Source: Escherichia coli (GTDB taxonomy: Bacteria > Pseudomonadota > Gammaproteobacteria > Enterobacterales > Enterobacteriaceae). Taken from it: a DNA stretch of 64,000 nucleotides. A program made the position numbers and the translations under genes. Shown piece by piece: positions 11-7,386 of the stretch (within the stretch, counting starts at the first letter, position 1; the number at the start of each line of letters is the position of its first letter). The stretch lies in the NCBI RefSeq assembly GCF_003790525.1, contig NZ_CP033633.1; one strand, 5' to 3'. The notes beneath the pieces are model-generated. The model did no database searches and was not told the origin of the DNA. It was given only the letters and a program-made list of their open reading frames with translations.

Positions 11-708
11 AATTACCAGTGTTATGGCTATCGTCGCCTGCATGCGATGCTCAGGCATGAGGGGGGGGGCGGCTATCAGAAAAGGTTGTACGCAGACTTA
101 TGGTGGAAGAACAGCTTGTCGTCAGCCGTAACCGTCGTCGCCGCTACAGCTCATATTGCGGAGAAATCGGACCGGCTCCGGATAACCTTATCGCCAGAGA
201 TTTTAAGGCGGAGCAACCTAATCAGAAATGGCTGACAGATATCACGGAGTTCCACCTCCCTGCAGGTAAAGTCTGGCTATCATCGGTGGTGGACTGCTTC
301 GATGGAAAAGTTGTGAGCTGGTCTCTCAGTACACGCCCCGATGCTGAACTGGTCAACACTATGCTGGATAGCGCTGTCGAAACGTTAAATGCTGGCGAAC
401 GACCGGTGATACACAGTGACAGAGGTGGGCATTATCGCTGGTCAGGCTGGCTGGAAAGAGTGAATGCAGAAGGTCTTATTCGCTCAATGTCCCGCAAAGG
501 ATGTTCACCTGATAATGCGGCATGCGAAGGCTTTTTCGGCAGACTGAAAACGGAAATGTATCATGGGCGTAAATGGTCGGGCATCACGCCAGAAAAGTTC
601 ATGCAGCAAGTGGATACTTACATCAGATGGTATAACGAGCGGCGTATAAAATTATCGCCGGGTGCAGTCAGCCCCAAAATGTACCGCCAACAATGCGGGC
701 TGGAATGA
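11..708 (+). pseudogene. IS3-family transposase OrfB (DDE integrase core); 5' end outside window; frame switches at a G9 homopolymer (61-69)
   Basis: Frame 2 (11-69: YQCYGYRRLHAMLRHEG) and frame 1 (100-708: RRRRYSSY...QKWLTDITEF...HSDRGGHY...SPDNAACEGFF) are consecutive IS3 OrfB segments joined at the poly-G run. Confidence 0.6.
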
Positions 709-1600
709 TAAAGCAGTCCAGGAAATCGTCCGCATCCCCAGAACGGTCAAACATCGTGGCGTTGACAACGGGTTCCTGAGTCCGGTGAAGCGCCGGTTAC
801 TGGAAAATGTTGTGTACGTCATAACAGAAACGGAGAGAAAAACGGCGATGCAAATCAGGCGGAGAAGGGTGTATCAGCGGTTACTGAAGGTTGACCCGCT
901 GAAGTGCATCCTGTGCGGAGGTCAGATGCGGTTTACGGGGCTGAAGCGGGGCTACCGTCTGGCAGAGCTGGTCATGATGCATGAGCCACTGGCACGACAG
1001 CGGGTATACAGCTGAGAGCCGCAGAGGGGAAGTTGCGTCCATTTTTTGAGGAATGGAGCAAAAAATCATCACAGATATAAAAAATCAATCAATGAAAGCC
1101 ATTTAATTGCCGGTGCATTGTGGATGCAGTCCTCATGGTACGTAACCAGAGTTGAATAAACATCCATTTTTTTGTGTTTTTTTAACCTCCCCGGGTTTTT
1201 AATTCCTGTCGATTAAAAGTGTTAGATTATTTGGTTAAGAGTTCTCTCGTCCTATTTATTCAGGCGTTATCACGGATATGCAGATCGCTAAGTCAGTTGT
1301 AAGAAAACCAGACAGTGCACATCATTATACCTAGGTCTTCTCTGGAAAAATACTTAGGAATAATTTATGTAAAACAGGTTGTCGTCTTCATGATTTAAAC
1401 GCAGTACATATATATACTCTATAATAAATACAGGGAGTATCACGAGACGTCTGGATAAGAGGAATAACCAGAATAAATTGGTAAGGAATAAAGACACTTA
1501 TTTCTATTGAGAAAAAACATTCATCCTGATGTGATTAGTATCAATGAAATAATGTACTTGTATGGTTGATAAAAAAATGCATCACTAAAGAAAAAACAGT

Positions 1601-4600
1601 ATGAATAAGAATATACGAATTTTACAATTTCTGGTCAGTATACTTTATTCTGTGCAGTCTCATTTTTCTAGTGCGCAAACAATACAACTGAATGGTAATG
1701 GTATACCTGAAAGTATAACCAGGAGTATTACAGGTGTTGATGGAAACGCGGCGCTTAATATCAGCGTGCCGTATAAAACAAGTTATACTCAAAATATACT
1801 ATCTGTTGAAAGCAGTATTAACATCAAAGGAGGAACAAGCAATACATCAATCGGTGGTGCAGGTGTCTACGGTGAAAACTTTACGCTAAATAATAATGGT
1901 AGTGTTTGGGGAGGAGATGGATATAATGGTGGAATTGCTGTTAGTGGCAACAAAATATCTATAAACAATTACAGAAATGTATATGGGGGTAATGGTCTTG
2001 GTGGCTCAGGAAGTAGCGGAGGTGCAGGGTTAAGCGGGGATGATATTATAGTTGATAATTACAGAAGTATATACGGAGGTGATGATGTAGGTGGGACAGG
2101 TGGTTCCGGTGTAACCGGTAGCAATATTACAGTGCATAATTCCGGAGGAATATTGGGCGGTAATGGCGTAAACGGTGGTGATGGTATTAATGGTAGTAAT
2201 CTTTTCATTACTAACGACAACATGATATCTGGAGGATATGGAATAAAACAAGGGGGAGATGCTATTTCTGGAAATCAAATCACTTTGAATAATAACGGTA
2301 TTGTTCAGGGGGGATATGGCCCCGACGGTGGTTGCTCTGTTTATGGAGAAGATATCCATATTAATAATCATGGTAATCTTTCAGGATTATATAATAGCCA
2401 AAAAGATGCTTATAATACATCAATAATTTTTTCTGGCGGGTATAATTCATTAGATATTTATTCAGATTCTGTGATTAATGGTGATATTAAACTAGCTAGT
2501 ATACCTGTTAATGGTACAAATGAATTAATTATTAAGAACATCAATAACGCAACAGCAATTAATGGTGGGCTAATGATTGGGAATGGCTCATCTGTTTATC
2601 TGTCAGGCAAGAACTCCATTTTTAACGGAAATATAAGTATTGATGAAGACGCATCTATGAACCTGTCTGTAGGAAATGCTAATGTTCACGCAAATACTAT
2701 TACATTAAAAAGTGATTCATGGCTTAATATAGACACATCAATTAAGAACTGGACTCAGGACTATTACACATTATTGTCGTCAGACACAGGTATCTCGATC
2801 GCTGATAATAGTCACATTGTACAATACAATGTATTACTGACAGAAGGTGCTGAAAGTTATGTTTATACGTCTTTAAATGACGACGATAACAAACTGATAT
2901 CCATGCTGAGATGGAATAATACAAAAGGGATGGGATATGGAACCTTTAATATAGAAAAAGATGCCACTCTGAACATAGGCGTTTCTCTTTCCGATAATCT
3001 TTCACCTTTATTATATGATGGCTGGGACGGCAAAAGTCTGACAAAATCAGGTAATGGTACTCTTATACTTTCTGCAACAAACAATTATACAGGAAATACA
3101 GAGGTTAAATCTGGCGTATTAATTCTTGCTGCACCTGATGCTCTTGGTCGGACTGAGTATTTATATTTATCCCGTGGCGCAGAACTGGATATGAATGGGT
3201 ATCCTCAGACAATAAGCAAACTACTGACGGCTGCAGGCTCTGTGCTGAACATTCATGGCGGAAGTCTGATACTGAATAATGGAGGAGAATCTGCAGGTAC
3301 TATTGCAGGGGATGGTTCTCTGAACATAAATGGGGGAATGCTTGATATAACGGGTAATAATCGTAATTTTTCCGGTGTTTTTACCGTGAATAAGGGGGCT
3401 CATTTGGCTGTATCCACGGCTGATAATCTGGGGACAGCCTTTGTTGATAACTATGGCACATTAACTCTGAACAGTACATCAGCATGGCAGCTTACCAACA
3501 ATATCAGTGGTTATGGTAATGTTCGCAAGACGGGAGCAGGTGCACTGAACATTAGCGATAACGCAAAATGGAGCGGGATGACAGATATTATTCAGGGGAC
3601 AGTGATACTGGGGAACGCAGATTCACCGGTGATGCTCGGCAGTAACCAGGTCATTGTTGAAGAGCAGGGCAAACTCTCCGGGTTTGGGGGCGTTGCAGGA
3701 AATCTGAGCAATAGTGGTATAGTCGATCTCACTACATATATGCCGGGTAATATACTGACTGTCGGAGGGAATTACACTGGCAGAAATGGACTTATTCTCC
3801 TCCAGACAGAAACAGGTGGTGACAATTCGAAAACAGATCGTCTGGTGATTAAAGGTAATGCCAGTGGCCGTACCCGTGTCGCTGTTACTCAGGCCGGTGG
3901 TTCTGGTGCAGAGACACTTAATGGGATTGAAGTGATTCACGTCAGTGGCAATGCTGATAATGCTGAATTCATTCAGACGGAACGTATTACAGCCGGAGCT
4001 TATGATTACATACTGAAACGTGGTCAGGGGATTAACAGCACTAACTGGTATCTGATTAGCAGAAAAGACATTCCTGTACCACAACCTGAAGCTGTACCGG
4101 AAAACCATGATAATAATTTGCGTCCTGAGGCAGGTAGCTATGTTGCCAGTATTGCTGCTGCAAATAATCTGTTTGTAACGAATCTGTATGAACGACAGGG
4201 ACAGGAGTTGTATATCAGCCACATGACAGGAGAAGAAAATGAAGCAGGTATCTGGATGTATAATAAAGGAAAACATAATCGCTGGCGTGACAACAGTAGT
4301 CAGCTGAGAACCCGGGGGAATAGCTACGTTGTGTTAATAGGGGGAGATATAGCTCAGTGGAGCCTGAATGGTACCGATCGCTGGCATACAGGTATGATGG
4401 CTGGCTATGGTCATAATAATAACAGTACGAATGCCCTGAGCACCGGATACCATTCGGAAGGAAGAATGAATGGATACACAGCGGGTCTTTATGCAACATG
4501 GTATGCCAATGATGAAACACACAATGGTTCTTATCTTGATAGCTGGCTGCAATACAGCTGGTTTGATAATCATATAAATGGAGAACGGCTGCCTGCTGAG

Positions 4601-5098
4601 TCATGGAAGTCAAAAGGGTTTACGGTATCTCTGGAAGCAGGATATTCATGGAAGGCTGGAGAGTTTACCGACAATTACAAGGGAAGTCATGAATGGTATG
4701 TTCAGCCGCAGCTTCAGGTTGTCCGGATGAATGTAAAATCAGACAAATATCATGAAAGTAACGGAACCAGTATTGAAAATACCGGTAACGGAAATATTCT
4801 CACCCGCCTGGGAGCAAGAACATGGCTTACCAGCAAAAACGGTAAAAATACGCGGTATGCGGTTCCGTTCAGACCATTTGTGGAGGCACACTGGTTGCAC
4901 AATAGTCGTGTTTTCGGCACCAGTATGAATGGTGTAAGTATATACCAGGATGGTGCGCGTGATATCGGAGAAATAAATGGTGGTGTTGTGGGAATGATAA
5001 CACCAGAAGTAGCATTCCGGGCTGATGCAGGCATTCAACTTGGAGAACATGGATACCATAATACATCTGCCATGTTGAGTGTGGAATATCGTTTCTGA
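1601..5098 (+). CDS. type Va autotransporter (adhesin-like): signal peptide, Gly-rich beta-helix passenger, C-terminal beta-barrel
   Basis: 1165-aa ORF; hydrophobic N-terminal leader; repeated GGNG/GGDG motifs; C-terminal ~280 aa with alternating aromatic pattern ending VEYRF; AT-rich relative to neighbours. Confidence 0.8.
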   Translation: MNKNIRILQFLVSILYSVQSHFSSAQTIQLNGNGIPESITRSITGVDGNAALNISVPYKTSYTQNILSVESSINIKGGTSNTSIGGAGVYGENFTLNNNGSVWGGDGYNGGIAVSGNKISINNYRNVYGGNGLGGSGSSGGAGLSGDDIIVDNYRSIYGGDDVGGTGGSGVTGSNITVHNSGGILGGNGVNGGDGINGSNLFITNDNMISGGYGIKQGGDAISGNQITLNNNGIVQGGYGPDGGCSVYGEDIHINNHGNLSGLYNSQKDAYNTSIIFSGGYNSLDIYSDSVINGDIKLASIPVNGTNELIIKNINNATAINGGLMIGNGSSVYLSGKNSIFNGNISIDEDASMNLSVGNANVHANTITLKSDSWLNIDTSIKNWTQDYYTLLSSDTGISIADNSHIVQYNVLLTEGAESYVYTSLNDDDNKLISMLRWNNTKGMGYGTFNIEKDATLNIGVSLSDNLSPLLYDGWDGKSLTKSGNGTLILSATNNYTGNTEVKSGVLILAAPDALGRTEYLYLSRGAELDMNGYPQTISKLLTAAGSVLNIHGGSLILNNGGESAGTIAGDGSLNINGGMLDITGNNRNFSGVFTVNKGAHLAVSTADNLGTAFVDNYGTLTLNSTSAWQLTNNISGYGNVRKTGAGALNISDNAKWSGMTDIIQGTVILGNADSPVMLGSNQVIVEEQGKLSGFGGVAGNLSNSGIVDLTTYMPGNILTVGGNYTGRNGLILLQTETGGDNSKTDRLVIKGNASGRTRVAVTQAGGSGAETLNGIEVIHVSGNADNAEFIQTERITAGAYDYILKRGQGINSTNWYLISRKDIPVPQPEAVPENHDNNLRPEAGSYVASIAAANNLFVTNLYERQGQELYISHMTGEENEAGIWMYNKGKHNRWRDNSSQLRTRGNSYVVLIGGDIAQWSLNGTDRWHTGMMAGYGHNNNSTNALSTGYHSEGRMNGYTAGLYATWYANDETHNGSYLDSWLQYSWFDNHINGERLPAESWKSKGFTVSLEAGYSWKAGEFTDNYKGSHEWYVQPQLQVVRMNVKSDKYHESNGTSIENTGNGNILTRLGARTWLTSKNGKNTRYAVPFRPFVEAHWLHNSRVFGTSMNGVSIYQDGARDIGEINGGVVGMITPEVAFRADAGIQLGEHGYHNTSAMLSVEYRF

Positions 5099-6495: not shown

Positions 6496-7386
6496 TCAGG
6501 CTGCCAGATCATCGTTTCCGATGGAAGCATAATAAGCTTTTTCTGCTTCTGCCGGTGGGATATGGCCCAGCCTTTCCAGCAATCGTCGATTGTTATACCA
6601 GTCCACCCACGTGAGTGTGGCCAGCTCCACTTCTGTCCGGTTTTTCCAGCTCTTACGGTGTATTACCTCCGCTTTGTAAAGGCCATTGATGCTCTCCGCC
6701 ATCGCGTTGTCATACGAGTCACCAGTACTTCCTGTTGATGCCAGTAATCCGGCTTCCTTAAGCCGCTGTGTGTAGGCCAGCGATACATACTGAGAACCTT
6801 TATCACTGTGATGGACTGTGCCGGACGGTCGACGGGCCCATAACGCCTGCTCCAGAGCATCCAGCACGAATGTCGTTTCCATAGACGATGAGACCCGCCA
6901 CCCCACGATGTATCCGGCAAACACATCAATGATGAACGCCACATAGACGACCCCCTGCCATGTGCTGACGTAAGTAAAATCAGCCACCCACAACTGGTCA
7001 GGACGTTCTGCCACAAACTGACGGTTTACGCGGTCGCCTGCGGCAACGGCTTTCCGGCTGACGGTAGTGCGGACCTTTTTACCCCGGAGAACACCGGCAA
7101 GTCCCATAACCGCCATGAGGCGCGCCACTGTACATCTGGCTACCCTGATTCCTTCCCGTAACAACTGACGCCAGACTTTACGCACACCATATACCTGATG
7201 ATTCCCATCGTATACGCGCAGTATCTCTTTCTTCAGCCAGTCATCGCGCTGCGCACGGGCACTGCGTTTATAAGGATGATGTCGCTGTTGCTGACAGTGG
7301 TAATACGTTGACGGGGCAATATGTAGTTCACTGCATACCGGTCCGACCCCGTACAGCTTACGCAGCTTATCCAGCAGTGGCATCAC
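6496..7386 (-). CDS. IS629 transposase OrfB
   Basis: 296-aa ORF; DDE integrase core (HSDKGSQY...[15 protein letters not shown]); overlaps orfA as in IS3 family. Confidence 0.85.

Follow-up and report, generated by a model that had tools for sequence, protein, structure and literature searches.

We identified a run of nine G residues that breaks the reading frame of an IS3-family transposase gene near the start of the 64,000-nucleotide stretch of Escherichia coli DNA analysed here (hereafter, the window). With a probability of about 80%, this G9 tract represents a heritable +2 slippage expansion of a G7 tract in the remnant of a single-ORF IS3-family transposase gene, which is subject to neutral decay, and has no functional consequence. 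The frameshift would be without effect because this copy of the IS appears to be already truncated and immobile. The main evidence comes from the architecture of the intact element, from the series of tract lengths found in other copies, and from the stability of an otherwise identical G7 tract in a large set of control assemblies.

Frame break and architecture of the element

The window starts within the IS, so that only the 3′ part of the element is included (positions 1–740; this and all other features described here are on the plus strand), with positions 1–760 of the window aligning to a full-length copy, L002, carried by plasmid pLH10-b-1-A. The homopolymer, GGGGGGGGG, occupies positions 61–69 and is flanked by A60 and C70. 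Upstream of the tract, the transposase is read in frame 2 (positions 2–61; ...YQCYGYRRLHAMLRHEGG, also written ...NSNYQCYGYRRLHAMLRHEGG, with ...YGYRRLHAMLRHE leading into the run), and this segment matches the Pfam domain HTH_21 (E=4.5e-05) and is continuous with the 318-aa upstream ORF of the full-length copy. Downstream, the homologous reading proceeds in frame 1 (positions 70–708; RLSEKVVRRLMVEEQ..., also RLSEKVVRRLMVEEQLVV..., encoding RLSEKVVRRLM...) through the DDE integrase core, with matches to rve (9.9e-19) and rve_2 (5.3e-13), and ends at a stop codon at 706–708. The switch from frame 2 to frame 1 falls exactly at the G9 run, as a preceding sequence-only reading had noticed. The assignment of the gene to the IS3 family, made in that same reading, is borne out by the rve and rve_2 matches and by the score of the transposase against the NCBIfam model NF033516 (transpos_IS3), which is 416 bits at a cut-off of 160; PGAP names the element only as “IS3 family transposase.”

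Aligned with copies that contain seven, eight or ten G, the window tract is two residues longer than the in-frame G7, in which GAG GGG GGG CGG encodes E-G-G-R. Only G7 and G10 yield the full ORF of 510 or 511 aa, respectively, and G6, G8 and G9 are out of frame, with G9 requiring a −1 shift. The run is the sole stretch of seven or more G or C within the 64 kb, which otherwise contain six G6 runs and one C6 run. We dropped the composition-based significance of the run, given that G9 or C9 also turned up in 33 of 100 shuffled versions of the window in which the dinucleotides were preserved. Thus, the meaning of the tract has to be sought in the comparison with other copies rather than in run statistics.

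The full-length element is approximately 1606 bp long (positions 1633–3239 in L002) and is bounded by perfect 26-bp terminal inverted repeats (TGGGGATGCGGACGATTTCCTGGACT / ...CCCCA, that is, TGGGG...AGTCCA / ...CCCCA) with the 5′-TG...CA-3′ ends typical of IS3. The right repeat, AGTCCAGGAAATCGTCCGCATCCCCA, with its CA end, is located at positions 715–740 of the window and is 100% complementary to the left repeat of L002. On reading the flanks of L002, we found no obvious short target-site duplication, for which 3–4 bp would be expected. Both sides of the IS in L002 (~1524–1545 and ~3245–3270, the latter corresponding to window ~746–771) carry ATCGTGGCGTTGACAA within IS91-like DNA, and this pair forms an imperfect direct repeat that is far longer than an IS3 target duplication.

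In its G7 form, the transposase gene is one unbroken ORF of 1533 nt encoding 510 aa. Such a gene is annotated by PGAP on plasmid pF1022-2 (WP_089581263.1), where the element lies in the context PerC-HTH-IS-IS91-aatA, and the copy in strain Nissle is likewise G7 and free of frameshifts. A protein search recovered 5991 relatives, and the best 120 of these include 105 full-length single proteins of 500–520 aa. The full-length homologs, typically of 510–512 aa, come from Salmonella, Dickeya, Enterobacter, Pseudomonas, Burkholderia, Cupriavidus and other Proteobacteria. This element does not have the arrangement in which orfA and orfB overlap and an A-rich heptamer directs a programmed −1 frameshift between them; the IS3 subgroup to which it belongs encodes the transposase as a single ORF. 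Given that this layout is the norm of the subgroup, the break at G9 is something other than the frameshift characteristic of IS3, although the sequence-only reading had called it the frame break of the IS3-family transposase.

The programmed −1 ribosomal frameshift of IS911, IS3 and IS150 occurs at A_AAA_AAG followed by a downstream structure. The element described here belongs to the same family, shows a frame change in the transposase gene, and still contains the ancestral A7 motif upstream of the region covered by the window (L002 2303–2309). However, the ORF of L002 runs from its ATG through this motif in frame, into HTH_21 and on to the G tract, and the break lies ~250 nt past the A7, within HTH_21, on a G run that is missing from the homologs. 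Moreover, the dominant allele shows no such break, the gene is a single ORF, and no stimulatory structure accompanies the tract (see below). The break as a classical orfA/orfB junction is therefore ruled out.

At the A7 site, the classical slippery motif A_AAA_AAA is kept in the right phase, and the KK that it encodes is conserved in all 105 homologs. A −1 slip at the A7 of L002 would lead to termination after 18 codons. Judging from the sequence, a short protein resembling OrfA could result, which would invert the logic usual for IS3 elements.

Origin of the tract and its length alleles

Most homologs lack the G run: they read EG[V/L]R at this site, compared with EG-G-R in the E. coli element, and no insertion or deletion interrupts this position in any of the 105 that are full-length. 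L010, an intact metagenomic copy with 97% identity, contains G5TT instead of G7, GAG GGG GTT CGG, encoding E-G-V-R (GAGGGGGTTCGG), and the same G5TT is found in the copies of E. coli MEI005 and EC571. Taken together, the homologs without the run and the G5TT copies indicate that the pure G7 arose within a single lineage of E. coli when two T residues were replaced by G, which left the ancestral length and frame unchanged.

We surveyed 5426 complete E. coli genomes and found the tract region in 1237 records. G7 is the dominant allele, with the G7 query matching exactly in 834 of these records, whereas G8 matched exactly over the full query in 25 and G9 in seven, namely, the plasmids of E15, E16 and E32 and the chromosomes of MB19, ET881, GPEC657 and 23CRST026. 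Plasmid bR120 also contains G9, with one mismatch in the flank; plasmid Br190 contains G10, and pETEC_73 of strain E24377A contains G6. On many plasmids, an in-frame 18-bp tandem duplication (CATGAGGGGGGGCGGCTA twice; for example, L004 2534–2569) doubles the tract. In the four duplication alleles that we read (L004, L013, L014 and L015), G7 always comes first and is followed by a second tract of G6, G7, G8 or G9, and the 107-base span that matches the G7+G9 combination (read in L015) recurs on plasmids of Escherichia albertii, Shigella flexneri, Salmonella enterica and E. coli.

G9 itself occurs in at least five contexts: a truncated plasmid copy next to a chemotaxis-receptor gene, as in plasmid pE32-3; an IS66-truncated chromosomal copy of the IMT5155 type, with IMT5155 itself being G7; a full-length plasmid copy; the second tract of an 18-bp duplication allele; and an unrelated chromosomal locus in strain S42. 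Furthermore, a single context, in which PerC-HTH, the IS, the IS91 remnant and aatA follow each other, includes G7, G8, G9 and G10. This spread of G6, G7, G8, G9 and G10 across other copies agrees with the earlier suggestion that the homopolymer is a hot spot of slipped-strand mispairing.

From this series, we infer both the slippage mechanism and the direction from G7 to G9. Two T-to-G changes would have converted G5TT (E-G-V-R) into G7 (E-G-G-R), producing a run long enough to slip. Slipped-strand mispairing at replication would then have added two residues to G7, within the HTH_21 region, and the tract would have drifted to G6, G8, G9 and G10 in separate lineages. In a full-length copy, G9 would result in a truncated product of ~353 aa; in the plasmid lineage to which the window belongs, the element would in addition have lost its 5′ part and be immobile, a remnant that has become fixed upstream of aatA. 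In E. coli, the longer a homopolymer, the higher its indel rate, with an exponential increase (PMC8510543), so that alleles with eight or more G would be expected to diversify further while G5TT and most G7 tracts stay put. Homopolymer frameshift pseudogenes share with this case a coding mononucleotide run, a length that varies among strains, truncation by out-of-frame alleles and the steep rise of indels with length (PMC8510543). There is no essential difference between the two; only the dense sampling of the G6–G10 series is unusual, and it is owed to the wide spread of the aatA locus, with which the remnant is transmitted.

Alternative readings of the G9 allele

The closest relatives of the window bear directly on whether the tract could act as a switch. 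No record identical to the window was found in the complete E. coli genomes or in PLSDB, and the nearest, at 99.9% identity, are the plasmids of E15, E16 and E32. In pE32-3, similarity to the IS starts only ~78 nt upstream of the site that corresponds to window position 1, and this copy has no left repeat, no start codon and none of the first ~250 codons, which include the N-terminal HTH domains. PGAP describes the gene as “frameshifted; incomplete; missing N-terminus.” The window's own copy, the upstream sequence of which lies outside the window, is probably 5′-truncated too, judging from these relatives. If the source of the window is structured in the same way, the G9 frameshift hits an already dead gene and would switch nothing. 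Thus, the proposal in the sequence-only reading that G9 might be a working on/off switch for this copy becomes implausible.

A broader version of that proposal concerns the full-length copies, in which the tract would be a reversible, heritable switch between ON (G7, G10) and OFF (G8, G9) states that limits the transposase and replaces the translational frameshift control absent from the single-ORF subgroup. Otherwise intact copies with G7, G8, G9 and G10 do occur in the same genetic context, the tract varies in several contexts, and the loop in which it lies is variable, accepting V, L, G or one additional G. Phase-variable poly-G/C contingency loci are known from surface genes of Neisseria, Haemophilus and Campylobacter, where the tracts are conserved, the genes are functional and exposed to fluctuating selection, and switching can be measured within a clone. 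As in these loci, the poly-G tract is intragenic here, and in-frame and out-of-frame lengths coexist among close relatives, with G7 to G10 in one plasmid context. However, unlike those tracts, the present one is specific to one lineage and resides in a mostly decayed transposase gene, and it is known from assembled sequences only. It is not conserved as a functional feature in the family, given that the homologs encode EG[V/L]R and an intact copy carries G5TT. The gene is not otherwise functional in the nearest relatives nor, probably, in the window, although some full-length copies elsewhere differ in this respect. Most copies are single and fixed, and many are truncated or contain stop codons, which leaves little activity to regulate; the copy in the lineage of the window is among those truncated, and neutral slippage in a decaying gene predicts the same pattern. 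No relevant reports of IS transposases switched by G tracts emerged from a search of the literature. We regard a contingency locus as improbable, and the narrower possibility that the tract is a mutational ON/OFF switch replacing frameshift control in full-length copies, with the G9 of the window being one of the OFF states, as marginally more so.

Another improbable alternative, on a par with the latter, is that the source DNA actually contains G7 (or G8 or G10), the long homopolymer having been miscalled in the consensus. Homopolymers of eight or more residues are classic error sites, with longer runs being more error-prone for sequencers, and the window and pE32-3 differ at another homopolymer, A7 compared with A8 at window 1571–1577. 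In addition, G8 and G9 isolates occur within the same studies (the ET, MB and GPEC series), which would fit either rapid switching or platform noise. However, the plasmids of E15, E16 and E32 share G9 with the window, which is an independent sequence: it differs from pE32-3 by nine SNPs over ~32 kb, by the absence of a group II intron and by the one other homopolymer indel. G9 is likewise present in four chromosomes from other studies, and the G7+G9 duplication allele in plasmids of four species. More generally, G8, G9 and the duplication alleles recur across assemblies from many unrelated projects, and G9 is reproduced in E15, E16, E32, the window, MB19, ET881, GPEC657, 23CRST026, bR120 and S42.

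The Nissle-type chromosomal copies provide a control for miscalling, since ~600 of their assemblies, produced with every technology, contain an identical G7 between almost unchanged flanks. Only two of these ~600 have G8 or G9, namely, 806883-9-2019 (G8) and S42 (G9), and no length change was seen among ~31 sampled Nissle-type records. Among the copies linked to aatA, by contrast, ~19% are not G7 (~34 compared with ~144 G7, an approximate figure because the G7 count is extrapolated from a spread sample). The contrast between 2 of ~600 and ~19% is one that inherited alleles can produce and random miscalling of G7 cannot, although a G8 or G10 could still have been read as G9 in the particular assembly of the window. 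Random sequencing error is thus an unlikely source of G9, and the artefact considered in the sequence-only reading does not fit the recurrence of G9 in independent assemblies and contexts alongside a stable G7 tract.

The least probable alternative is that a ribosomal −1 slip on G_GGG_GGG, or stuttering of the RNA polymerase, restores a full-length protein of 511 aa (E-G-G-G-R) from G9. In principle, perfect re-pairing after a −1 slip inside the run would bring the frame back, −1 frameshifting is classical in IS3 elements, and PGAP annotates a “programmed frameshift” on bR120 (G9) and on LH10 and PK8275 (G8). However, neither a slippery site nor a frame break is conserved at this position: the family encodes a single ORF, none of the 105 homologs is broken here and most lack the run, and the dominant allele, G7 (834 of 1237 records), is already in frame. 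Folding of window positions 70–130, 72–112 and 40–140 gave z-scores of −1.05, −0.63 and −0.92, respectively, such that no significant stimulatory RNA structure was detected downstream of or around the tract, and in the closest relatives the copy has no start codon. Transcriptional slippage in some IS families relies on long, conserved tracts of A or T whose out-of-frame state is built in. The present case resembles it in that a homopolymer lies in a transposase gene and rescue at the RNA level is possible in principle, but here the run consists of G, varies in length and is in frame in the common allele.

The PGAP label deserves separate comment, because G9 copies kept intact by programmed frameshifting were what the sequence-only reading had named as evidence against a switch, and in the annotation such copies seem to exist: “programmed frameshift” is assigned to G8 and G9 copies alike (L002 1674–3207, L006 1654–3188 and L012 3490–5023), whereas L018 1654–3186 is annotated as unbroken. 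At the same site, however, the label needs a +1 shift for G8 and a −1 shift for G9, and the G8 copy of LH10 receives the same accession, WP_089581263.1, as the unbroken G7 gene. The label on the G8 and G9 copies is annotation repair and not evidence of recoding. A programmed −1 frameshift was therefore rejected, on the lack of downstream structure, the lack of conservation and the inconsistency of this label.

The aatA locus and implications

The IS fragment is followed by an IS91-family transposase remnant (positions 770–1015, annotated by PGAP on the identical stretch L001 3270–3515) and by aatA, encoding the APEC autotransporter adhesin (positions 1601–5098 in the ORF list; an autotransporter according to PGAP), the ORF of which is 3498 bp long. 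The published aatA ORF is also 3,498 bp, IS91 has been reported in its 5′ flank, and IS2- and IS91-like sequences have been described at all sequenced aatA loci (PMC2944236). The IS fragment and the IS91 remnant together form a conserved 5′ flank of aatA. As a Sanger-era record of tract length, the cosmid sequence of IMT5155 reaches only 1,072 bp upstream of aatA and thus stops short of the G tract (PMC2944236). The plasmid pAPEC-O1-ColBM did not appear among the matches listed.

The window represents a segment of an APEC virulence plasmid of the ColBM/IncI1 type, related to pE32-3. The homologous stretch of pE32-3 contains aatA, the eit iron-uptake operon, colicin B/M genes, ccdAB, vapBC and many IS remnants. 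Around position 6969–6977, the window is without a ~2.2-kb stretch that includes the ltrA gene for a group II intron reverse transcriptase; in pE32-3, this stretch is present and located inside another IS3-family element.

A second variable homopolymer was observed closer to the adhesin gene, at positions 1571–1577, that is, 24–30 nt upstream of the aatA ATG at 1601. This run is A6 in IMT5155, pF1022-2, bR120, GPEC657 and 23CRST026, A7 in the window, LH10 and PK8275, and A8 in pE32-3. The predicted transcription start sites of aatA are upstream of the poly-A run (PMC2944236). The run would hence lie in the leader of the adhesin transcript, where a change in length could affect aatA expression.

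To conclude, the G9 tract is probably an ordinary homopolymer frameshift in an IS remnant, at a slippage hot spot, with an artefact being improbable. The frame break should accordingly be taken to reflect homopolymer slippage leading to a pseudogene, rather than programmed frameshifting of the IS3 type, and the PGAP label on the G8 and G9 copies is misleading in this respect, as it can be mistaken for evidence of recoding. If full-length copies of the element did switch, this would amount to mutational instead of translational control of an IS3-family transposase; nothing in the present data requires such switching. The length of the tract, from G6 to G10, together with the 18-bp duplication, provides a cheap, fast-evolving marker with which lineages of the aatA virulence locus can be traced on both APEC plasmids and chromosomes.
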